Shown here: in pieces, positions 5,763 through 51,150 of the stretch
How the letters are laid out: each line of letters opens with the position of its first letter
Numbering within the stretch: the first letter of the stretch is position 1
Source: a virus
Lineage: Duplodnaviria; Heunggongvirae; Uroviricota; Caudoviricetes
Virus record (IMG/VR): IMGVR_UViG_2563366798_000003
Span: 1 to 51,413 of that record
DNA: 51,413 nucleotides
Direction: 5' to 3' (one strand)
Notes under the pieces: model-generated
Databases searched by the model: none
Told to the model about the DNA's origin: nothing
Seen by the model: the letters and a program-made list of their open reading frames with translations, nothing else
Translations under genes and position numbers: made by a program

Positions 5763-6716
5763 TTATTCGAATGGAAGATCTATTTGCCTTTGAGGATTCA
5801 ACTGTTTTTTTACATGCTCAATTTCGAATATGGTTTTTATGGCATCTCCGATCATATATTGAGTTACTTTTAAATCTACAAGTAACATATCACCTTTAGA
5901 AAAATTTAAGGTGTTGTTATCAATATCGCTGATGAATTTCTGGTCTTTTATTTCAGCCAAAAAGCTACTGGCACCATCAGAAAACCGCCACCGGCTTCCT
6001 TCATTGAAGGAAATATTTTTAATTTGAAGGGCTTTCTCTACTGTGTACTCTGAAATTATTGATTCTGCTGGTAGATTGACTTTGAAATAATGTGCTTCTT
6101 GCTTGTTGATCGTCATGAATGTCAAACCATCATCGACAGTAGAGGCAAAGCTGTCAATGCCTTCCTGCTCTAATGGCTTACTTATAACTTCTTGTAATGA
6201 AGAGCGAAGTTTAATATTTTTATAAAGTTCAATAACGTTACTGTCGTAGATCTCGCTTTCGTCATCAACAAAGACTTCGATGTTGCTATCAGGCAAATTG
6301 TGTAATTTTTTTATTTTCCTTGGACCTATCCATTTTATCAGTTGAATTAGGCCTTTGCATATTTTTTCTTTAGAACCAGGACAGAGTCCAATAAAAGCAA
6401 TCAAATTCGCAGCGGCTGTTGCTGAATCGCCGGATAAAAAATCAACAGCCTGTTTGAACCAAGATGTAGATGAGGCAACCAGATCTATTCCAAATGAGCC
6501 AGCTTTAAATGATGCATTGACTTTTACAGAAACAACAGTCTTGTTTCCGTAGAGAGTTTTACCGGCTTCCTCTAATGCATCTGATAGTGATAGAAGGGCA
6601 GGAGCAAGGTCTCGCACGTTCATTTCATGCGTTTCCAGTGCCGGACCGTCGTATACTATCCTGAACTTCATATCATTGGTTTCCGAATTGTTGCCCGCAT
6701 CCATTATGGCATTCAC
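5763..6716 (-). CDS. hypothetical protein (317 aa) in the lysogenic rex slot between cI and pL
   Basis: Long AT-rich ORF on the cI strand, directly downstream of cI and followed by a terminator; no recognisable domain; start ambiguous (ATG at 6716 or 6704). Confidence 0.75.
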   Translation of the reverse strand: MNAIMDAGNNSETNDMKFRIVYDGPALETHEMNVRDLAPALLSLSDALEEAGKTLYGNKTVVSVKVNASFKAGSFGIDLVASSTSWFKQAVDFLSGDSATAAANLIAFIGLCPGSKEKICKGLIQLIKWIGPRKIKKLHNLPDSNIEVFVDDESEIYDSNVIELYKNIKLRSSLQEVISKPLEQEGIDSFASTVDDGLTFMTINKQEAHYFKVNLPAESIISEYTVEKALQIKNISFNEGSRWRFSDGASSFLAEIKDQKFISDIDNNTLNFSKGDMLLVDLKVTQYMIGDAIKTIFEIEHVKKQLNPQRQIDLPFE

Positions 6717-9394: not shown

Positions 9395-10092
9395 AAAACA
9401 TCGCCGCACAGATGGTTAATTTTGACCGTGAGCAGATGCGCCGGATCGCCAATAACATGCCGGAACAGTACGACGAAAAGCCGCAGGTACAGCAGGTAGC
9501 GCAGATTATCAATGGTGTGTTCAGCCAGTTACTGGCAACTTTCCCGGCGAGCCTGGCTAACCGGGACCAGAATGAACTGAACGAAATCCGCCGCCAGTGG
9601 GTTCTGGCTTTCCGGGAAAATGGGATCACCACGATGGAACAGGTTAACGCAGGAATGCGCGTAGCCCGTCGGCAGAATCGACCATTCCTGCCATCACCCG
9701 GGCAGTTTGTTGCCTGGTGCCGGGAAGAAGCATCCGTTAACGCCGGGCTGCCAAACGTCAGCGAGCTGGTTGATATGGTCTATGAGTATTGTCGGAAGCG
9801 TGGCCTGTATCCGGATGCAGAGTCTTATCCGTGGAAATCAAACGCGCACTACTGGCTGGTTACCAACCTGTACCAGAACATGCGGGCCAATGCGCTTACT
9901 GATGCGGAATTACGGCGCAAGGCTGCCGATGAACTGACTTGTATGACCGCGCGAATTAACCGTGGTGAGGCGATACCTGAACCAGTAAAACAACTTCCTG
10001 TCATGGGCGGTAGACCTCTAAATCGTGCACAGGCTCTGGCGAAGATCGCAGAAATCAAAGCGAAGTTCGGACTGAAAGGAGCAACTGTATGA
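9391..10092 (+). CDS. P: replication protein P (DnaB helicase loader)
   Basis: 233 aa matching lambda P (MKNIAAQMVNFDREQMRRIANNMPEQYDEKPQVQQVAQIINGVFSQLLATFPASLANRDQNE...); ATGA overlap with O. Confidence 0.95.
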   Translation: MKNIAAQMVNFDREQMRRIANNMPEQYDEKPQVQQVAQIINGVFSQLLATFPASLANRDQNELNEIRRQWVLAFRENGITTMEQVNAGMRVARRQNRPFLPSPGQFVAWCREEASVNAGLPNVSELVDMVYEYCRKRGLYPDAESYPWKSNAHYWLVTNLYQNMRANALTDAELRRKAADELTCMTARINRGEAIPEPVKQLPVMGGRPLNRAQALAKIAEIKAKFGLKGATV

Positions 10093-10385
10093 CGGGCAAA
10101 GAGGCAATTATTCATTATCTGGAGACGCACAAGAGCTTCTGTACGCCGGACGTTGCTGCGACAACAGGTGTGACATTAACCAGCATAAATCAGGCTGCGG
10201 CAAAAATGGCGCGGGCAGGAATCCTGGTCATTGATGGTAAGGTCTGGCGAACGGTGTATTACCGGTTCGCTACTAGAGAAGAACGGGAAGGAAAGGTGAG
10301 CACGAACCTGATTTTTAAGGAGTGTCGCCAGAGTGCCGCGATGAAGCGGGTGTTGGCGGTATATGGGAGATTAGTTATTACTTGA
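10089..10385 (+). CDS. ren: Ren exclusion protein
   Basis: 98 aa matching lambda Ren (MTGKEAIIHYL...REEREGK...KECRQSAAMKRVLAVYG); overlaps P stop. Confidence 0.9.
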   Translation: MTGKEAIIHYLETHKSFCTPDVAATTGVTLTSINQAAAKMARAGILVIDGKVWRTVYYRFATREEREGKVSTNLIFKECRQSAAMKRVLAVYGRLVIT

Positions 10386-10741
10386 TTTGATGGTTATCTC
10401 GAAAACATCCAATCAAATTTAATGGTTTGCTTTGTGCGGGGAACTATAACAATGTTTCTAGCTTGGTGCTGTATGAATTAGTGAATTAGTAGGGAATATA
10501 TCCACACATTGATTAACACAAAAATATTTCAGATATTAAATGTAACTCAAAGGATGAGTAATAATGGTTGTGTAGCGTATAACAGGATGCTGAGGTAGTA
10601 TTAAACAATGAATAAATCTGATTGACAAGCACCAGATAATACTGCGGGTCAATCATTAGACATGAACGCCACTAGTTACTGAGAGTAACTAATGGCGTTG
10701 TGTTTATAGTTAAGATGTTTTTTTAAAACATCAGGGGGGCT

Positions 10742-12289
10742 CTACTTGTCTTTTTTAATATGTTCAATCTCATCATTAAGACATTTATCTATTTTTTTTA
10801 TTAACACATTAATTTCTTCGGTGTTTTGGAGTTGAGTTGTCTTAGAAACAAAAACTCGAATAAAGAATTTAACATAGTGATAGGGTTGAAGTACATCGTT
10901 ATACTTACATAAATCATTTATTGTATACTTGCCGCCTGTTTCTTTTTTTATTATTTTAGCTTGACTTGTATCGATATCTTTAAAGTTATCTTCAATCTGA
11001 AAATCAAGAACCCATTCATCTCCTTTTAAATTATCCTCAATGATTTTGTTGATTTTCTTAGATATATTTTGTTTATATTCTTTGTATCTGTTGTCGGAAA
11101 TGTTAACATTAGAAAACGTGTGTTTTTTTTCATATATTTTTTTCCAAACATTTCTATCAACAATATCTTGAATTATAGCTTGAGAATTTTTATCTAATGT
11201 GTTTTTAAGAGTGTTTTCTAAAAACGTTTTGTCTGGGTTTTCACGATAAAAGTGTTTGATGGACTCAATGAGAGTGTTTTTAGATTTTAAAGAGACAACA
11301 TCATCAGTTTTTTTTCTAGAACACGCTTTGTTAAGCATCGCAGATAGTGCACGATTGGTCTTATGAAAATAAACTTGACTATAAAGCCCACTTCTTGCAT
11401 TGGCAAATTCTAGTATTGAATCCATACCACTTTCTTTATATGCCAGGTAAACACTATTTTCAACTTTCACAGGAATAAATGACATTAATAATCGTCCATA
11501 ATCATAAATCCCATATTTAACGCCGGAGAAGTAGCTATCTCTAAGTAGGTAGTCCATTCTGTCCGCATCTATAGGTGAAGATGATATGATTGAACATAAT
11601 AAAGGATATACATTTACTCCCTCAATGTTATTTTTAAAATCATATCTTTTATCAACAATTTTTATAATGCTTTCTGGATTAATAGCCGCTATGTTTTCTT
11701 TATAGACATCGTCGTCATTTGATTTATCTTGGGCTTCATTTTTTAATTCTTCAATAATTTCTTTAATAAAAATACATGATACTTGTTCGTGGGTTAACTT
11801 GTCATTATCACTTAAAGATATAATCTTATCGTATTGTTTATTTCCTTCAGTTTTGCATTTTTCTTTGAAATCTTTTACGGATATTGCAAAACTATCGAAT
11901 TGGTGGGCAAGTGGGCCATGCCCAACATCGTGTAACAATGCTGCAATACGTAACTCCTGTATAAGACTTGAAGGCATTTTTTTTATATCTAAATATAGAT
12001 CAATGCCCATATTTTTTCGGTCATAAATTAATGCATTCAAATTTATATTTTTCAAAATCTCATACGATAAATGCATTACACCGACAGAGTGTTCAAAGCG
12101 AGAGTGCATTGCAGAAGGAAATACTTTATATAGAAACGTGTTCTGCCTGATATCTCGTAGTCGTTGGAATAAAGGATGGTCAATTATCTTTTTTTCTAGC
12201 TTAGTTATTCGAATCACTCCATGTATGGGATCTAAAAACTTCCCCAGAAGTAAGTCTTCAAAGTTCTCAAGTTTGTTTTTGTTTGTCAT
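10742..12289 (-). CDS. HD-domain phosphohydrolase, Dgt/SAMHD1-like putative dNTP triphosphohydrolase
   Basis: 515 aa; motifs H-x-x-H (HSRFEHSVGVMH), HD (LLHDVGHGPLAH) and D-x-D-R-x-D-Y-x-x-R-D (DADRMDYLLRDSYFSG); AAGGAAAG SD; strongly AT-rich, opposite strand to flanking phage genes. Confidence 0.85.
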   Translation of the reverse strand: MTNKNKLENFEDLLLGKFLDPIHGVIRITKLEKKIIDHPLFQRLRDIRQNTFLYKVFPSAMHSRFEHSVGVMHLSYEILKNINLNALIYDRKNMGIDLYLDIKKMPSSLIQELRIAALLHDVGHGPLAHQFDSFAISVKDFKEKCKTEGNKQYDKIISLSDNDKLTHEQVSCIFIKEIIEELKNEAQDKSNDDDVYKENIAAINPESIIKIVDKRYDFKNNIEGVNVYPLLCSIISSSPIDADRMDYLLRDSYFSGVKYGIYDYGRLLMSFIPVKVENSVYLAYKESGMDSILEFANARSGLYSQVYFHKTNRALSAMLNKACSRKKTDDVVSLKSKNTLIESIKHFYRENPDKTFLENTLKNTLDKNSQAIIQDIVDRNVWKKIYEKKHTFSNVNISDNRYKEYKQNISKKINKIIEDNLKGDEWVLDFQIEDNFKDIDTSQAKIIKKETGGKYTINDLCKYNDVLQPYHYVKFFIRVFVSKTTQLQNTEEINVLIKKIDKCLNDEIEHIKKDK

Positions 12290-12648
12290 GAGGCTTTCCT
12301 TTTGCTGTAGTTATAATACGAAATTTAAATAGTAATGATGTTTATAGTTTCAATGTGTTATCTAATGGTTAACACATTGTGATGTAGCATATCAATATGG
12401 ATTCATATGTTCAATTGGTCTGTGGAGTTTAGTTATGAATAAGATTGATTCTGGTAATACTTTGTAGTTTAAGCTAGAGGCGGGATTCGTGATGTTCAAA
12501 TCAGTATGTAATGGAGGTTGTGCATTAGTACTTGCTGCTGGAAATTAAAAATAAAGTTGCAAGTAATCGACGTTTTCCGGGAGGAGGATGTAAGCATCGC
12601 TGACCAAAAAGTATCAACGATGCCTGTTTTGTTTTAACTACAAATTAA

Positions 12649-14151
12649 TTAAATTGCATCTGCAAACTCTGTGATTTTTCGCTCAAGTATGATTGATGAG
12701 TTGCTGTTGTCGATTTTTTTATTTTCATGATTACGAATAGCCAATGACTCATTAAAGTCTTTTGCGACTGCTGTCTCAATAAATTCAATTTCTGAATCAG
12801 AGTGTTTTTTAACAGCTTCTTTGATCTCATCCAGAGTAACATAGAAAAACTCTTTTCTACGATTTACAAGATTGACTCTCTTTTTATCGAAGACATCATG
12901 TAGTTTTTTTTCTAATGATGGAGCGTCCTCCGAATAAATCATGGCATGCACATCAAAAATAAAAGGAACAGATGCATCACCAAGCTCATTTACACGGTCT
13001 TGTGGATCAAGACGTCGTGTCATGCCTATTTTATAAACATTCTCCCCAAAAGAACCTATGTTCGAAATAATATAAACATGACCTTGTTTGGTTTGTTGTG
13101 CCATGGATAATGCTCTTTGATGCTTTGATTCAGCCTGCGACAAACTCTGTTCTAGTTCGGCAATGCGATTTTCGAGGCGCTGCTTCATGTCACCAGTAAC
13201 TTTTTCCATTTCCTTTCTTGCAGCTTCAATTGCTTTTTTATAACGGCGCTCTTCTGCCTCTGCGTCTTGCATGGCCTTTTCTATTTCTCGTTGTGCACGC
13301 TCCTCCTCTCTCATTTGTGCCCTTATTTCTGCCTGTTCTTCTTTTTCTTTCTGTTTTTGCTCACGATATTCATGGGTAAGCCACAACTCCTCAAGTTTTT
13401 TATTAAGGTATTTAGTATTTATATATATGTGATTTTGCTCGTTTAGTTTATTTATGGCCTCAAATGCCTTTGTGATGCGTTCTTCCATTTTAGTGATATT
13501 TTTCCACGTGCAATTACTAATTGCAGCATCACATTCATTATTAAATGCTCTAGTAGTTAGCCTAATATTTCTGTCTGTCATTTTTTTACCCTCTGCTCGA
13601 GAGCCTTCAACAGTCCATTGGGTTGTGCAATATACTGCACCAGAGTGGGTTTTATCCCGCAGCATTAATTTCTGTTCATCCCTGATGGATTTTATTTTGT
13701 TTTTAAATTGCTCTGAATCTTCAAAATTAAAATGAGGTTCGTAAAATCCTAGTTCGGCTAGTTCAACATCTTCTGAATAAATAGAAATTTGCTTTACTAG
13801 CTTATCATATATTTCTTTCTTCTCTTTATAAGTTCTTCTTAGTTCTTGGATTTGTTTATTGATACCATCCATTTTTTCAATGGTGTTTGTTAGTTCATTA
13901 TTGGCATTTTCTTTTACTTTTTGGGACTCTTCTTTTATAATGGAGCATTCTTGCTCTGTTTTCTCAATAAGCTTCTTACATTCCTCTTCCACATTAAAAT
14001 AATCTGCAAAGCGAGATTTGTATTCTTCATTTTTTTGATTGCTATCACTTAATTCTAATTGTATTTTTTTGATGCGTTTGATTGCAGCTATATATAGAAC
14101 AAGAACAACCAATAAAAATATGATTGCAAGTAATAGTGGAGTTTGAGTCAT
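12649..14151 (-). CDS. membrane-anchored coiled-coil protein with C-terminal T5orf172/GIY-YIG-like domain
   Basis: 500 aa; N-terminal hydrophobic helix (LLLAIIFLLVVLVLYIAAI), long charged coiled-coil segments, C-terminal GHVYIISN...VYKIGMT...VPFIFDVHAMIY motif; AAGGA SD. Confidence 0.8.
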   Translation of the reverse strand: MTQTPLLLAIIFLLVVLVLYIAAIKRIKKIQLELSDSNQKNEEYKSRFADYFNVEEECKKLIEKTEQECSIIKEESQKVKENANNELTNTIEKMDGINKQIQELRRTYKEKKEIYDKLVKQISIYSEDVELAELGFYEPHFNFEDSEQFKNKIKSIRDEQKLMLRDKTHSGAVYCTTQWTVEGSRAEGKKMTDRNIRLTTRAFNNECDAAISNCTWKNITKMEERITKAFEAINKLNEQNHIYINTKYLNKKLEELWLTHEYREQKQKEKEEQAEIRAQMREEERAQREIEKAMQDAEAEERRYKKAIEAARKEMEKVTGDMKQRLENRIAELEQSLSQAESKHQRALSMAQQTKQGHVYIISNIGSFGENVYKIGMTRRLDPQDRVNELGDASVPFIFDVHAMIYSEDAPSLEKKLHDVFDKKRVNLVNRRKEFFYVTLDEIKEAVKKHSDSEIEFIETAVAKDFNESLAIRNHENKKIDNSNSSIILERKITEFADAI

Positions 14152-14577
14152 TCGTGCTATTCCTTACGGACAATTTAAGACGTTTTGTATTAAATCCTGT
14201 TCAATGTGTATGCGGGTGATTGCTACCGCTTACAATCTTCATAATTATCAGTTAGATAGACTCGCTAGTAAATAATTTCATTTTTTGCAATATTCTTATT
14301 GAATATTTCAATTTATGAAATGAACTCTTTATCCTTTCAAGGCGAAAGGTTTCTTCTTCGGAAATATTTGCTCTCGTGTGACGTATAAAGGCCTTTGATT
14401 TTTAAAAAACAGTAGGGAATAATATAGTTACTGTCGGCCTGAACACCCGGCGGTGGGGTTGCGCTAAACGGGGACGTTTATGCGCACATACAATCTAAAC
14501 TCTCTTCTCCCTTCACAGATGCAGAAATGCACCTGCGATTTTTTGCATCCAACGTTTGACCTCTGCGGAGGTGAAGC

Positions 14578-15033
14578 GTGAACCTACCACAAGATGGCAT
14601 CAAATTACATCGCGGCAACTTTACCGCTATCGGCCAGCAGATCCAGCCTTATCTGGAGGACGGAAAATGCTTTCGCATGGTGCTTAAACCGTGGCGTGAG
14701 AAACGCAGTCTTTCCCAGAATGCACTCAGCCACATGTGGTACAGCGAAATCAGTGAATACCTTATCAGCAGGGGGAAATCGTTCGCTACCGCAGCATGGG
14801 TAAAAGAAGCTCTCAAACACACATACCTCGGTTATGAAACCAAAGAACTGGTTGATGTCGTAACCGGTGAAATCACCACTATCCAGTCGTTACGCCATAC
14901 CTCCGATCTTGATACCGGAGAGATGTATGTCTTCCTGTGTAAGGTTGAAGCCTGGGCGATGAATATTGGCTGCCACCTGACTATTCCGCAGAGCTGCGAG
15001 TTCCAGCAGCTCCGCGACAAGCAGGAGGCGTAA
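14578..15033 (+). CDS. ybcN: YbcN-family protein (DLP12 nin-region homolog)
   Basis: 151 aa, GTG start with GGAGGTGAA SD; sequence matches my recollection of DLP12 YbcN. Confidence 0.75.
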
Positions 15034-16600: not shown

Positions 16601-17125
16601 TTATTGTTTAACCCATAATAATTCATTGACATTGAATCCCAACTTTTGAGCGGTTCGCACATAGTCTGCTTTTACTTTATCTGGAATAGTTGAGGTCCTT
16701 GCCAGAATCCATAGGTATTCTCTGTTCGGACCACTGACAAGAGCATACTTATACTCATCATCCAGTTTGATTACATTATAGCCACCATAGAAGGGGCCAA
16801 AAAACGAAACCTTCAACGCTGCAGTTTTAGTATCTCCAGTAAAGTATGCTTTACCTTCGCTCTCGCTCCATTTATTTTTCGTTGGATCGTATCCACGGTT
16901 AAGTACACGAATCCCTCCGTCGTTCCGTTTTCCATAAGTAGCGCTGACCTGTTCCAGACCACGTTCGAACCGGTTCTCGAGGCGAGCTATTTCATACCAT
17001 TTTCCGAGGTAGCGGTTGGCGTCAAAATTTGTAATCGGCTGCACACCTTTAGGTGGTGTCGGGGTCTTACATGCTATAAGAGTGAAAGAGAGCGCAATGC
17101 CAGTCAACACAGGCCATAACTTCAT
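16601..17125 (-). CDS. lipocalin-family outer-membrane lipoprotein (Blc-like)
   Basis: 174 aa with lipoprotein signal (LSFTLIAC) and lipocalin motif (GKWYEIARLENRFE); moron position between Q and lysis genes. Confidence 0.8.
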   Translation of the reverse strand: MKLWPVLTGIALSFTLIACKTPTPPKGVQPITNFDANRYLGKWYEIARLENRFERGLEQVSATYGKRNDGGIRVLNRGYDPTKNKWSESEGKAYFTGDTKTAALKVSFFGPFYGGYNVIKLDDEYKYALVSGPNREYLWILARTSTIPDKVKADYVRTAQKLGFNVNELLWVKQ

Positions 17126-47535: not shown

Positions 47536-48285
47536 ATGGATTATGTTTGCTCCGTAGTTTTCATCTGTCAATCATTTGATTTAATTATAAACAGGAGAGT
47601 TATCTCGTTCAAAAAAAATTCATTGTTTATTGTAAGCGACAAAATTAGAAGAGAGTTACCAGTATGCCCCTCTAAACTAAGAATTGTTGATATAGATAAG
47701 AAAACATGTTTATCCTTTTTTATCGACGTGAATAATGAGTTGCCTGGCAAATTTACTCTTGATAAGAATGGCTATATTGCTGAAGAGGAACCTCCATTAT
47801 CGCTTGTTTTTTCTCTGTTTGAAGGGATTAAAATAGCAGACTCACACTCCCTTTGGTTAAAAGAAAGACTATGTATATCCTTACTTGCCATGTTCAAAAA
47901 ACGCGAAAGTGTAAATTCATTTATACTAACAAATATAAATACATTTACCTGTAAAATTACTGGAATAATCAGTTTTAATATTGAGCGGCAATGGCATTTA
48001 AAAGATATTGCGGAATTGATTTATACGAGTGAAAGTTTAATAAAAAAAAGATTAAGGGATGAAGAAACGTCATTTACTGAAATATTGAGAGATACTAGGA
48101 TGAGGTATGCAAAAAAACTCATAACTTCAAACTCTTATTCTATCAATGTCGTAGCCCAGAAATGTGGCTATAACAGTACTTCATATTTCATATGTGCATT
48201 TAAAGATTATTATGGTGTCACGCCATCTCATTATTTTGAGAAAATAATCGGCGTCACAGATGGAATAAACAAAACAATTGACTGA
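47536..48285 (+). CDS. appY: AraC-family regulator, AppY-like
   Basis: 249 aa, strongly AT-rich, C-terminal AraC HTH; sequence and position next to ompT match my recollection of E. coli AppY. Confidence 0.75.
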
Positions 48286-48534
48286 TAATATTTATTACAA
48301 GTTGTCTACATGTTAATTATAATATTATACAGCGTGTTTTTTGATGTGATATTCTGGAACCATTAATTTGTAATTGGGTTGCTGTCGCCTATTTTATACA
48401 CACTATAATTGATGGTTTTCTATGTGATTTAGTTAATAACCTTCTGGGTTTATTTTAAGGGTTAATTGTTACATTGAAATGGCTAGTTATTCCCCGGGGC
48501 GATTTTCACCTCGGGGAAATTTTAGTTGGCGTTC

Positions 48535-49488
48535 TTAAAATGTGTACTTAAGACCAGCAGTAGTGATGAAGTTATAGTTTTCTATGCCTGCTCCATTTTT
48601 GCTGTAGTCTGAAGTGTTATTATTGTGATCATAAAGTGAAGTATTACCTTTTTTATTCGTAACCCGATTCCATGCGCCTTCAACATAAACTTTTGCGTTA
48701 GGTGTGACGTAATAACCTGCATTGACTGCAACAGAATAGTAATTTTGGTCTTTGACCTTACTGCGATAAGTGATTCTTTTTCCCGGGTCATAGTGTTCAT
48801 CGTTATCAGATGATTCCACCCAGCCGCTGTATTTAAATGTGCCACCTAGCTCAAAATCTTCATAACGATAACTTCCAGTCAAGCCAATGTAGGGCATTTT
48901 AAAACGTTGTTTGTAGCCGATTGCTCTTTCTCCATTCGGGAAGGAGCCGATATCATCTCTGAATCCCTCCTCAGAACTGTAGATATAGGAACCACCTCTG
49001 GCTGTAAAGCTATAACGGCTTTCCTGATATCCGGCCATGAGTCCCAGGCGGTAATTGGGTTCGTTGAGGAGCCAGCCTTTGATATTCAGATCAAATTCGT
49101 TGGCATAATTGAGTTGTGTATCAGGATGTCTACTTTCATCCGTCCAGGTTCCGGGGTTACTGGAATCCATCCAGTCCTGATCGACCATATTGCCACCTCG
49201 GCTGCCGAGTGTTGTCCAGCCAGCAGCCCCGATAGATATCTGAGGCATCAAATCCCAATTAATTGCACCTTTAATAATTGCAGCGTTATTGAATTTCCAG
49301 TCAAGTTGACTGACTTTTCGGCTTCCTTCTTCGGCTAGATAAACACGCTCTTTTGTTTTTCCGCTCAGAGTTCCAAGACTAATGTCCGCATTTATGTTGT
49401 CAGGAGTAAACGATAAAGTCTCGGTAGAAGCAAAAGAGTTGATCGCAATAGGGGTTGTCAGGACTATTCCCAGAAGTTTCGCCCGCAT
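48535..49488 (-). CDS. ompT: outer membrane protease OmpT (omptin)
   Basis: 317 aa matching E. coli OmpT (MRAKLLGIVLTTPIAI...TAGLKYTF). Confidence 0.95.
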   Translation of the reverse strand: MRAKLLGIVLTTPIAINSFASTETLSFTPDNINADISLGTLSGKTKERVYLAEEGSRKVSQLDWKFNNAAIIKGAINWDLMPQISIGAAGWTTLGSRGGNMVDQDWMDSSNPGTWTDESRHPDTQLNYANEFDLNIKGWLLNEPNYRLGLMAGYQESRYSFTARGGSYIYSSEEGFRDDIGSFPNGERAIGYKQRFKMPYIGLTGSYRYEDFELGGTFKYSGWVESSDNDEHYDPGKRITYRSKVKDQNYYSVAVNAGYYVTPNAKVYVEGAWNRVTNKKGNTSLYDHNNNTSDYSKNGAGIENYNFITTAGLKYTF

Positions 49489-50038
49489 AAAAGTTCTCCA
49501 TTCAATCGTTTTAATGATTGAATATGTATTTTTTATATCTAACTTAATGAGTCAATTACATATTGCTCCACTGTTTATATTTTGTTTAGTATTGAATGAT
49601 TATCACAATGCGCTATCTGTTTTTGGTTTAATTATCTGTTATTGTTTCATATTGCGGTTTTACTGTGTGGTTTTTTTATGATTTTGTGGTGCTTTTATCT
49701 ATTTAAGTGCCATGCCTTTAGAGGCATATAAGCGAAAATAGCATGAGGTTTATCCTCAATTACTATGTTTTTTAGTACAAAAAAGAGGGACAAAACTGAG
49801 ACACATAAGGCCTCACAAAGGTCTGCAAGGCTTCACATGTATTGAGATGTTAATAAAATGTAGGCTTGTAATTTTGATATAAATGGTAGATAAAACCTTT
49901 CCCCAAAATAAAAACGAACGTCAATAAAATCAAACGGTTGAATAAAGTTGATTTTGGCTAATAAAAAGACAATAAAATAATTTTTATCATTAAATATCAA
50001 TGAATTGAACTTAATGTTTTTATATACTGCTGCGCCAT

Positions 50039-50190
50039 ATGGGCTGGACTGAAGCCGCAGACCTGATTGTTAAAGGTATGGAAGGCGCAATCAACGCCAA
50101 GACCGTAACCTATGACTTCGAACGTCTGATGGAAGGCGCTAAGCTGCTGAAATGTTCAGAGTTTGGTGACGCGATCATCAAAAACATGTA
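50039..50190 (+). pseudogene. icd: 3' fragment of isocitrate dehydrogenase gene (icd C-terminal duplicate, icdC-like)
   Basis: Encodes ...[49 protein letters not shown]-stop, the Icd C-terminus, with no upstream coding continuation. Confidence 0.8.
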
Positions 50191-50214
50191 ATCACTACAT
50201 GTGTTAAATATTGT

Positions 50215-50244
50215 AACGGGCGTATAACACGCCCGTTGTTTTAT
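50215..50244 (+). terminator. rho-independent terminator downstream of icd fragment
   Basis: AACGGGCGT / ACGCCCGTT stem with ATAAC loop followed by GTTTTAT. Confidence 0.6.
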
Positions 50245-50260
50245 GTAAGTTTGCTAACGG

Positions 50261-50293
50261 TTATCAAAATTTTATCAAAATAAGTTATCAAAA
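50261..50293 (+). repeat. three direct TTATCAAAA repeats
   Basis: TTATCAAAA at 50261, 50272 and 50285; the second matches IHF-like consensus WATCAANNNNTTR. Confidence 0.5.
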
Positions 50294-50465
50294 CCTCTTA
50301 GTTGTTTGGGGTCGGTTGGTCAGTCAGATGACAGTTCTACTGCCAGGTTCCTATTAGACATTCCTCTATTTGGTGGACGCTCGTTAATATTTAGATCCGC
50401 TATGTGTCAGGTGCGGGCATTGTTATAAATGCCAATTGATATAACGTCAGCTCGTTTATCTCATC

Positions 50466-50876
50466 TTACAGAACCTCAACAACTTCAAACTCTTCCATAA
50501 TCAACTCCATATCTTCAGAAAAATGACCTTCCTGGGTGAAAAATCGTTGATGCTCTCTCTGCCAATATTCAAGGCTCAAATCGCCTTCACCTTCCTTGCG
50601 AGCTAACTCGGCAGTAACATCACAAAAACACACCAGTTGCATCGACACCAGCCTGGTCACGCATACCGGTACATCCTGGCCGTCAAGGATGATGTTATAG
50701 CTCCCAATCCTTGGGGCAAATTCTTCCTTCTGATAAGAGGCATAAGAGCCACAGGAGGCCGTTTTAATCCCTTTTTCTATAAGTGCTGCAAGCTCGTTAG
50801 CCAGTTCAGGGCTGTCGCCCATTTGCCAGGCATTCGCGTCCGGATATTTCATCTTTAGTTCATCAACCTTACCCAT
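50466..50876 (-). CDS. hypothetical protein (136 aa from internal ATG; longest ORF reaches 51026), possibly ASCH/PUA-like
   Basis: ORF 50466..51026 in track; family assignment is a guess from size and a G-x-K-T motif. Confidence 0.4.
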   Translation of the reverse strand: MGKVDELKMKYPDANAWQMGDSPELANELAALIEKGIKTASCGSYASYQKEEFAPRIGSYNIILDGQDVPVCVTRLVSMQLVCFCDVTAELARKEGEGDLSLEYWQREHQRFFTQEGHFSEDMELIMEEFEVVEVL

Positions 50877-51150
50877 TACACGTCCTTTCTGATTGTAAAT
50901 AATAGAGAAATAGCTGAGCATTAATTGTTCGAATATTAACAGTGATGCTTTCTTGCTAATATCATAGTTCGTTTTTCGCTCAAAGCGGGCTGTTTGGTTC
51001 TTTTTCATGTGGGGTGAGAAATTCAAGGAGGCGTTGAGACGTTTAAATTTTCACAACGCTACTTTGCGCCATTCTTTACCTCAATCATCATGATAACAAT
51101 CGGTTTGACGAAAGTGATCGCGCCTACGCGGATATTATCGTGAGTATGCT

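Follow-up and report, generated by a model that had tools for sequence, protein, structure and literature searches.

The DNA considered here is a stretch of 51,413 nucleotides (positions 1 to 51,413 of the IMG/VR virus record IMGVR_UViG_2563366798_000003, Caudoviricetes; the whole stretch is called the window below), and it contains, between the lambdoid prophage genes ren and ybcN, an AT-rich insert with two genes on the opposite strand. One of them encodes a 500-aa protein that by its sequence is SNIPE (PD-lambda-1), and the other a 515-aa protein with an HD domain (HD protein in the following) that can be aligned directly with the human antiviral enzyme SAMHD1. We think it reasonably probable that the insert consists of two autonomous single-gene morons, namely SNIPE and a defensive deoxynucleoside triphosphate (dNTP) triphosphohydrolase, or dNTPase, of the SAMHD1 clade, which are stacked at the ren/ybcN junction. 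The SNIPE half of this arrangement is already known, and the pairing is not a new system. What would be new is the HD protein as a member of the nucleotide-depletion class that comes from a clade not validated in bacteria in the literature searched.

An AT-rich insert at the ren/ybcN junction

The GC content of the insert (Table 1) is 0.329, compared with 0.495 in the rest of the window, and it is the lowest among all 4,088-bp windows scanned (mean 0.486, standard deviation 0.073). Values of 0.26-0.38 are found throughout the region and of about 0.50-0.55 to both sides. The left break, at 10371/10372, was located by comparison with prophages that carry SNIPE alone at this junction (SNIPE-only loci), and the right edge, at about 14459, by comparison with related prophages; homology to phage 82 and lambda-like phages picks up again at about 14460. 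The ren product has 98 residues and not 100 because the junction of the inserted HD module replaces the last ren codons. In the annotation of strain SCU-111 the ren gene is labelled frameshifted (L100:504-802).

Two open reading frames (ORFs) lie on the minus strand with a gap of 359 bp between them, each preceded by a Shine-Dalgarno-like motif. For the HD gene this is AGGAAAG, whose end is 6 nt from the ATG, and for SNIPE it is AAGGA, 9 nt from the ATG. A preliminary description of the window, made from its letters alone, had reported at 10386-14577 an AT-rich insert of roughly 4 kb with two opposite-strand genes, each with its own Shine-Dalgarno motif, and had proposed defence cargo in the nin region. 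The composition and both ORFs agree with this, the range is close to the alignment-derived edges, and the proposal of defence cargo is upheld.

The 515-aa protein and its relation to SAMHD1

In a phmmer search the HD protein matches human SAMHD1 with an E-value (E) of about 4e-26, with residues 19-430 aligned at 22-24% identity; Aquifex 2HEK and Enterococcus EF1143 are also direct sequence matches among solved structures. A profile built from 43 members of the HD family finds 2HEK (2e-44), EF1143 (1e-35) and SAMHD1 (1.7e-31) in the Protein Data Bank (PDB), and up to E = 10 it finds there no E. coli Dgt, Sp-dGTPase or CloA. Pfam recognizes the HD core only (E 9.8e-7), together with a sub-threshold HD_assoc_2, and the PHROGs group is phrog_35128, to which no function is assigned there. 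An AlphaFold2 (AF2) model of the protein (pLDDT 87.8, pTM 0.89) was compared with the PDB using Foldseek, and the best 50 matches are all SAMHD1 (human, a fungus and C. elegans). The superposition on 7A5Y gives TM-scores of 0.64/0.72 over about 510 columns and includes the C-terminal lobe.

The HD phosphohydrolase signature of the preliminary description (H..H, HD, D-x-D-R-x-D-Y-x-x-R-D) is complete, with H62/H67, H120-D121 and D241-A-D243-R-M-D246-Y-L-L-R250-D251. In the motif alignment, R164 and H167 of SAMHD1 correspond to R64 and H67 of the HD protein, H206-D207 to H120-D121, H210, H215 and D218 to H124, H129 and D132, H233 to H167, D309 and D311 to D241 and D243, Y315 and D319 to Y247 and D251, and Y374 to Y307. 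Lys-312 of SAMHD1 is exchanged for R244, which is invariant in the family. The guanine-specific triad of allosteric site A1 (D137/Q142/R145) has its counterpart in D37/Q42/R45, and H376-K377 of allosteric site A2 in H309-K310. Across 43 homologues there is no variation in the mapped catalytic and pocket residues or in the counterparts of Q142/R145 and H376/K377, except that D132 is only nearly invariant; D37 is the residue of the majority. The counterpart of SAMHD1 K116 aligns one position off; K17 of the HD protein is invariant.

Two alleles of the gene in E. coli allow an estimate of constraint. Omega, the ratio of non-synonymous to synonymous rates, is 0.01-0.08 in the catalytic blocks, a sign of very strong purifying selection, with 1 non-synonymous versus 20 synonymous changes in residues 241-320, and the cross-genus values lie at 0.09-0.19. 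Amino-acid changes cluster in the surface segments 121-240 (omega 0.34) and 321-420 (omega 0.54), which may reflect either relaxed constraint or contested surfaces. Positive selection was considered and rejected: no segment reaches an omega of 1, the variable ones lying at 0.34-0.54, and therefore only relaxed constraint can be claimed. Judged by these ratios, the enzyme clearly appears to be kept functional. As read from alignments and the predicted model, the HD protein is a member of the SAMHD1/EF1143 clade with intact catalytic residues and the full-length SAMHD1 fold, and by homology it is most likely a dNTP triphosphohydrolase.

The label "Dgt/SAMHD1-type" in the preliminary description holds for SAMHD1 and has to be dropped for Dgt. 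The PADLOC dGTPase model (PADLOC models date from 2023, before Ogmios) gives 16.7 bits for the HD protein, with an E of 8.8e-4 over profile positions 70-138 of 395, that is, the HD core only. Ten other family members score 14-24 bits on this model, similar to their Cas3-HD scores. For calibration, a genuine dGTPase of the type described by Tal et al. (2022) from V. caribbeanicus reaches 450 bits on the same model (profile 28-381). TIGR01353 gives 27.3 bits at a cut-off of 152. Membership of the HD protein in the PADLOC/Tal dGTPases was rejected on the HD-core-only score, the TIGR01353 value below the cut-off and the lack of a Dgt-like match in the PDB.

The 500-aa protein is SNIPE by sequence

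PADLOC model PDLC03976 (PD-Lambda-1) matches the 500-aa protein with an E of 5e-198, residues 1-484 falling on profile positions 1-484 of 491, and the second PD-Lambda-1 model, PDLC03977, with an E of 1.8e-194. PD-lambda-1 (Vassallo et al. 2022) has been renamed SNIPE (Saxton et al. 2025, bioRxiv 10.1101/2025.11.03.685801) and is described there as a 500-aa protein with one N-terminal transmembrane (TM) helix shown experimentally, DUF4041 and a GIY-YIG nuclease. In the window copy the hydrophobic segment LLLAIIFLLVVLVLYIAAI has a Kyte-Doolittle 19-residue maximum of 3.37 at residue 6, and Pfam finds both domains. The five residues named in the SNIPE paper (E223, N250, W257, I308 and E414) are all present at the same positions; the codon of the catalytic E414 is located at 12910-12912, within PSLEKKL. 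The module is 97.5% identical to the SNIPE-only loci of E. coli NWU_4 and phage PhiR26_1. The annotation of phage PhiR26_1 names its copy PD-lambda-1, and the newer RefSeq label for identical genes is "SNIPE associated domain-containing protein". On this evidence the 500-aa protein is identified as SNIPE/PD-lambda-1, an already characterized single-gene defence. The membrane anchor and the T5orf172/GIY-YIG block of the preliminary description were thus found again by hydropathy and Pfam (TM segment, DUF4041, T5orf172); its authoring model had recognized no named system in the pairing, and for the 500-aa protein this is corrected by the PADLOC match.

SNIPE has been reported to reside constitutively in the inner membrane and to associate with ManYZ and the tape-measure protein, its DUF4041 binding DNA and the tape-measure protein (bioRxiv 10.1101/2025.11.03.685801). 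It cuts phage DNA while this is being injected, the defence is direct and non-abortive with a single gene being enough, and the exchange E414A leads to its loss (same source). From the near-identity we infer that the copy in the window would act like published SNIPE.

The SNIPE gene is broken by IS1 or IS5 insertion sequences (IS) in at least four genomes (TB354, Evo1, CP137705 and OZ392478; L001:11564-13065), and in strain 23AR0806 it is split into two coding sequences (CDSs). This repeated loss may point to a cost of carriage.

Distribution of the two genes

Of 5,426 complete E. coli genomes, 131 carry SNIPE and 21 (0.4%) carry the HD gene, and a more sensitive blastn mode returned the same 21. 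The HD gene is missing from 110 of the 131 SNIPE-carrying genomes, in which SNIPE stands alone at this junction. E. coli NWU_4 and phage PhiR26_1 carry SNIPE alone between ren and ybcN. The comparison of this junction across related prophages, which the preliminary description had suggested, shows that the SNIPE-only loci share the flanks and carry 207 bp in the place of the HD module; because 2,215 bp replace these 207 bp, HD appears to be an extra module inserted into a SNIPE-bearing prophage.

In nine other inspected genera the HD homologues have no SNIPE neighbour, and the two genes are found together solely in one insertion lineage of E. coli, which comprises the 21 genomes. The homologues of Serratia (76% identity) and Proteus mirabilis (76%) are found beside proBA and in an island with a CBASS CD-NTase and Cap15, respectively, and that of Enterobacter (74%) beside HigBA. 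In Yersinia ruckeri (67%) the gene is a single insert in a P2-like prophage, on the opposite strand and flanked by tail gene S and baseplate gene V (L089:4007-5569). More distant homologues are located in an integron cassette array among toxin-antitoxin cassettes in Vibrio cholerae (44%), in a small chromosomal island in Aeromonas (46%) and beside an AbiC-like gene in Proteus (second type, 45%). SNIPE is not found nearby at any of these seven loci, and no neighbour is common to the homologous HD loci across the genera inspected. The Yersinia P2-like prophage represents a second, unrelated phage backbone that carries the same HD cargo.

Several HD-carrying E. coli genomes have a SNIPE gene that is disrupted by IS1 or split, with the HD gene intact. 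From these comparisons we conclude that HD and SNIPE are, on the genomic evidence, two independent modules, and that a dependence of HD on SNIPE is unlikely. The pairing as one system in the preliminary description is therefore given up: SNIPE is mostly alone at the junction, HD is alone in other genera, and the recombination histories of the two are different.

In E. coli 2 HS-C (L099), EcPNK006 and M23917 an intact HD+SNIPE pair is located in a decayed DLP12-like remnant at tRNA-Arg/fimZ. The remnant has lost O/P/ren, its bet gene is truncated and its essD incomplete, and a stop codon interrupts rusA, yet the cargo has been kept.

Non-coding parts and alleles of the HD module

The junctions of the HD module are unchanged in SCU-111, a genome with a divergent HD allele. 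Nucleotide similarity between E. coli, Serratia, Proteus and Enterobacter reaches from about 125-235 bp before the HD ATG to about 110 bp past the stop codon, and because this flanking non-coding similarity is kept across genera, the mobile unit seems to consist of the promoter region, the HD gene and a hairpin. The 5′ region, which presumably contains the gene's own promoter and operator, is 72-76% identical in Serratia, Proteus and Enterobacter, though the upstream genes are unrelated. It holds the Shine-Dalgarno motif at 12294-12300, a 32-nt block at 12386-12417 that does not vary between E. coli, Serratia, Proteus and Enterobacter, and a perfect 10-bp inverted repeat at 12351-12379 (CAATGTGTTA-N9-TAACACATTG) that is only partly conserved elsewhere; the block and the repeat may be a candidate promoter and operator. 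The hairpin beyond the stop codon, presumed to be a terminator or RNA-stability element, shows one compensatory pair and several G-U changes across four genera, and the 91-nt 3′ region is strongly folding, with an energy of -29.1 kcal/mol (z -7.4). Promoter-like and terminator predictions are no commoner than in shuffled sequence, and for this reason the scans are uninformative.

We also searched for a hidden partner or antitoxin of the HD protein, comparable to CloB for CloA or the small RNA AvcI for AvcD. Rfam has no match at E <= 1 in 9800-15000, the search around HD revealed no tandem or meaningful repeats, and the two gaps by HD contain only unsupported ORFs of 20-47 aa. Such a partner was rejected, as there is no RNA family, ORF or shared neighbour; the conserved 5′ region might still hold a small RNA that is not annotated.

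An HD allele with 89.9% identity is present in five E. coli genomes, its divergence being confined to 10984-11983 (82-87% nucleotide identity). In these genomes the HD flanks are 97-100% identical, and the HD 5′ region and the whole of SNIPE 99-100%. A 22-nt direct repeat (12546-12567 / 14113-14134, 19/22 identical) is shared by the HD module, at its right edge, and SNIPE codons 6-13. It scores above 300/300 shuffles and does not extend further. As a recombination scar it is uninterpretable, since it has no extension and the junctions are without flanking repeats.

Genomic context of HD homologues

Using PADLOC, we scanned 128 neighbours (up to four genes per side) of 17 loci with close HD homologues. 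A control set comprised 144 neighbours from 18 loci whose homologues are distant (~30% identity). This is a rough comparison and not a statistical one. In Psychromonas a complete Zorya type II system (ZorA2, ZorB2, ZorE2) is located directly downstream of the HD gene, and in Vibrio splendidus the same position is taken by DarG; a DarT match is also found in the close set. LmuA, a Tal-type dGTPase, PDC-S08 and PDC-M45 complete the matches, which are strong and essentially full-length. The control set yielded mostly weak generic matches repeated in syntenic archaeal loci, one type I methyltransferase and a few others. Because the control also has defence matches and the design is crude, we regard the result as supportive and not as statistical. 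Homologues that sit consistently in non-defence contexts had been named in the preliminary description as an outcome that would speak against its proposal; the neighbours found here (Zorya II, DarG, dGTPase) and the placements in prophages and an integron are of the opposite kind.

In Vibrio caribbeanicus ATCC BAA-2122 (L011:8394-11428) the Tal-type dGTPase is located directly upstream of the HD homologue (47% identity), so that this island has two dNTPase classes side by side.

Carriage of HD by Klebsiella phages was considered and rejected. In phage ST11-VIM1phi8.3 (L098, MK416019) and related records, the flank contains LysR, SDR, HD and a DJ-1 protease. The "phage" records include this chromosomal flank, with the gene outside the integrase, and thus the phage-borne Klebsiella HD gene seems to be a prophage-boundary artefact. 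Plasmid carriage is essentially absent, with three Klebsiella records, one of which is really a chromosome.

Proposed mode of action and alternatives

Both cargo genes are transcribed opposite to the phage early-right operon. The SNIPE copy would meet siphovirus DNA at the ManYZ/tape-measure injection site and cut it. The HD enzyme would hydrolyse dNTPs to deoxynucleoside and triphosphate, the dNTP pool would fall, and a superinfecting phage would then be unable to replicate. Regulation of the HD enzyme is probably its own, through putative nucleotide-binding allosteric sites of the SAMHD1 type and with no partner protein: site 1 would take GTP/dGTP and site 2 a dNTP, and an infection-driven rise in dNTPs would switch the enzyme on. 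In the Clover system dTTP switches on CloA (PMC12265719). A lysogen would in this way gain an injection-stage barrier (SNIPE) and a replication-stage barrier (HD), neither of which needs the other. The N-antiterminated pR transcript would cross both genes antisense to reach ybcN and Q, and because of this the expression of HD and SNIPE may be damped on prophage induction. We hypothesize, more tentatively, that the HD protein stands for a distinct autonomous single-gene family of anti-phage dNTPases in the SAMHD1 clade, which is spread as morons, cassettes and island genes and is controlled through its allosteric sites.

Several observations weigh against two stacked, autonomous defence genes. 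All 21 E. coli HD copies adjoin SNIPE on the same strand, and no intrinsic terminator is predicted in the 359-bp gap, so that read-through co-transcription is possible. Both points would suit one cooperative two-gene defence system, in which the dNTPase might block repair or replication of SNIPE-nicked DNA, or SNIPE activity might trigger the dNTPase. We consider such a system very improbable, as SNIPE alone suffices for defence (bioRxiv 10.1101/2025.11.03.685801) and mostly stands alone at the junction, the HD homologues of the nine other inspected genera do without it, and HD has its own conserved 5′ region, a divergence history that differs from that of SNIPE, and intact copies where IS elements break SNIPE. 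A single insertion followed by inheritance accounts best for the adjacency, which alone does not exclude dependence. Other observations concern the defensive role itself. The HD gene matches no defence-system model in PADLOC beyond the HD core, and the literature searched contains no experiment on the HD protein and no phage-defence test of a prokaryotic member of the SAMHD1 clade. Defence matches are also present in the control neighbourhoods of distant homologues. The Klebsiella homologue, flanked by an SDR and a DJ-1 gene, belongs to a cluster of 3,530 member sequences, for which reasons it looks core-like, and the place of the Serratia homologue beside proBA is an unremarkable chromosomal setting.

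The HD protein could accordingly be a housekeeping or fitness enzyme for the dNTP pool that happens to be on mobile DNA and has no anti-phage role, acting for example on mutation rate, the cell cycle or nucleotide salvage in stationary phase. Besides the core-like Klebsiella gene, this agrees with the wider COG1078/SAMHD1 clade, which is common in bacteria and archaea in conserved syntenic contexts outside islands, with distant dGTPase homologues that are not enriched near defence genes (Tal et al. 2022), and with a Caulobacter dNTPase that is reported to act in cell-cycle control (PMC12186491). We nevertheless hold it to be unlikely, because the HD subfamily at >=40% identity is patchy (0.4% of the E. 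coli genomes, sporadic across genera) and the gene is strongly AT-rich relative to the host, is found as a prophage moron twice and as an integron cassette, stands beside Zorya II, DarG and a Tal-type dGTPase, and is intact in a decaying prophage remnant. A substrate other than dNTPs, with the HD protein serving the prophage as a nuclease/RNase or nucleotide second-messenger phosphohydrolase in counter-defence or regulation, would surprise us. HD domains can catalyse varied reactions, Cas3-HD models fit family members about as closely as the dGTPase model does, and the allosteric sites of SAMHD1 are reported to bind nucleic acids (PMC7854603). Yet the similarity to SAMHD1 is full-length and extends beyond the HD core, the substrate-pocket counterparts of R164, Y315, D319 and Y374 are present, and the solved and characterized relatives, SAMHD1 and EF1143, are dNTP triphosphohydrolases.

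Two autonomous modules would make the ren/ybcN junction of lambdoid prophages a cargo site able to stack several defence genes. Typical defence-cargo positions in several unrelated mobile elements are occupied by a protein whose direct alignment with SAMHD1 spans the full length, and current defence-finder models miss its family. If the HD protein defends, nucleotide-depletion immunity extends to a second enzyme clade, there is a small partner-free model to show what keeps a SAMHD1-type enzyme harmless before infection, and the descent of SAMHD1 from bacterial anti-phage dNTPases, which was left open by Tal et al., becomes directly testable. Should the family be distinct as proposed, it would correspond directly, in prokaryotes, to SAMHD1 immunity and be a candidate for the ancestral type of the eukaryotic restriction factor.

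Features and other accessory genes of the window

Table 1. Coordinates of the insert at the ren/ybcN junction, its flanks and its parts (positions of the window)
Feature	Position	Strand	Basis or remark
AT-rich accessory insert	10372..14459	.	between ren and orf33/ybcN backbone; GC and alignment breaks
Left flank, ren, 98 aa	10089..10385	+	homology to the 100-aa ren of SNIPE-only loci stops at 10371
Right flank, ybcN (ninB-position gene)	14578..15033	+	ORF; RefSeq annotation of identical loci
HD module, 2,215 bp replacing the 207-bp spacer of SNIPE-only prophages	10372..12586	-	blastn against SNIPE-only loci
HD protein CDS, 515 aa	10742..12289	-	phmmer, family profile, AF2/Foldseek, Pfam
H120-D121 codons, HD metal-binding dyad (SAMHD1 H206-D207)	11927..11932	-	motif HDxGHGPxSH; invariant in 43 members
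Conserved 5′ non-coding region of HD gene, presumed own promoter/operator	12290..12524	-	cross-genus nucleotide identity
13-bp hairpin about 45 nt past HD stop, presumed terminator/RNA-stability element	10665..10698	-	conserved in four genera
SNIPE module (gene and 308-bp upstream region)	12587..14459	-	97.5% identical to SNIPE-only loci
SNIPE CDS, 500 aa	12649..14151	-	PADLOC PD-Lambda-1; phrog_1847; named residues present
SNIPE N-terminal TM segment, residues ~6-24	14080..14136	-	hydropathy
DUF4041, SNIPE residues 198-252	13396..13560	-	Pfam PF13250, E 1.2e-19
T5orf172/MUG113 (GIY-YIG-type) nuclease, SNIPE residues 357-449	12805..13083	-	PF10544, 6.9e-17; PF13455, 7e-19

Further AT-rich genes are found elsewhere in the window. 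A 313-aa ORF (5763-6704, minus strand) is located beside the prophage repressor, at the position of lambda rexAB. It has no Pfam domain, its whole length is covered by a match to the PADLOC candidate PDC-S42 (E 3e-86), and it may be a third defence-type cargo gene of the prophage. A lipocalin gene (16601-17125, minus strand) follows just after the Q antiterminator region, and near the window end, at 47536-51026, there are genes for an AraC-type regulator, an omptin protease and an ASCH-domain protein, a set which we take to resemble the appY/ompT/envY neighbourhood of the K-12 DLP12 site.

Comparison with known systems

The 500-aa protein agrees with SNIPE/PD-lambda-1 in length, in the TM-DUF4041-GIY-YIG layout and in the five named residues, and both are cargo of lambdoid prophages. 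The sole local difference from most SNIPE loci is the extra HD module between SNIPE and ren.

With human SAMHD1 the HD protein shares the metal and catalytic residues, the full-length fold as modelled, and counterparts of the allosteric triad residues and of H376/K377. It differs from it by the lack of a SAM domain, the low identity, the shift of the K116 counterpart by one position, its bacterial origin and its location on mobile DNA. The closest solved relatives by sequence are the COG1078-type enzymes EF1143 of Enterococcus faecalis (2O6I) and Aquifex 2HEK, which have the bacterial origin, the HD core and the DxDRxDYxxRD block in common with the HD protein. These two are chromosomal with no defence role reported, whereas the HD protein is longer at the C-terminus and is found on mobile elements. 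Defence by EF1143-type enzymes that act on all four dNTPs has been raised as speculation only (Tal et al. 2022).

The Tal dGTPase (Sp-dGTPase) follows the strategy proposed here, a single HD-domain enzyme that removes a dNTP, and occurs in the same type of genomic setting. It belongs to a different family, however: Tal et al. (2022) obtained no direct alignment between their defensive dGTPases and SAMHD1, whereas the HD protein has one. Clover consists of the dGTPase CloA and the nucleotidyltransferase CloB, without which CloA is toxic; CloA is Dgt-like, with an H/E dyad, an octameric assembly and allosteric nucleotide control, and a rise in dNTPs serves as the infection cue (PMC12265719). CloA is thus a defensive HD dNTPase under allosteric nucleotide control, as is proposed for the HD protein. 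Clover, on the other hand, has two genes, whereas in the HD module no second gene of the CloB type, small ORF or RNA element is detectable.

Ogmios is a single-gene cassette of the Vibrio cholerae superintegron that encodes an HD "putative dGTPase" predicted to be a hexamer, and its BLAST homologues overlap the DefenseFinder dGTPase family (Darracq et al. 2025). It resembles the HD gene as a single-gene HD defence in the form of an integron cassette, and an HD homologue is also found in a V. cholerae array. Because of the overlap with the dGTPase family and the predicted hexamer, Ogmios is likely to be part of the Dgt-like branch and thus probably represents a different clade. Of the known systems compared, it is the one to which the HD gene may still belong. 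The bacterial defensive dNTPases that have been validated in the literature searched, the Tal dGTPase, CloA and probably Ogmios, then fall into the Dgt-like branch, whose link to SAMHD1 is seen only when profiles or structures are compared.

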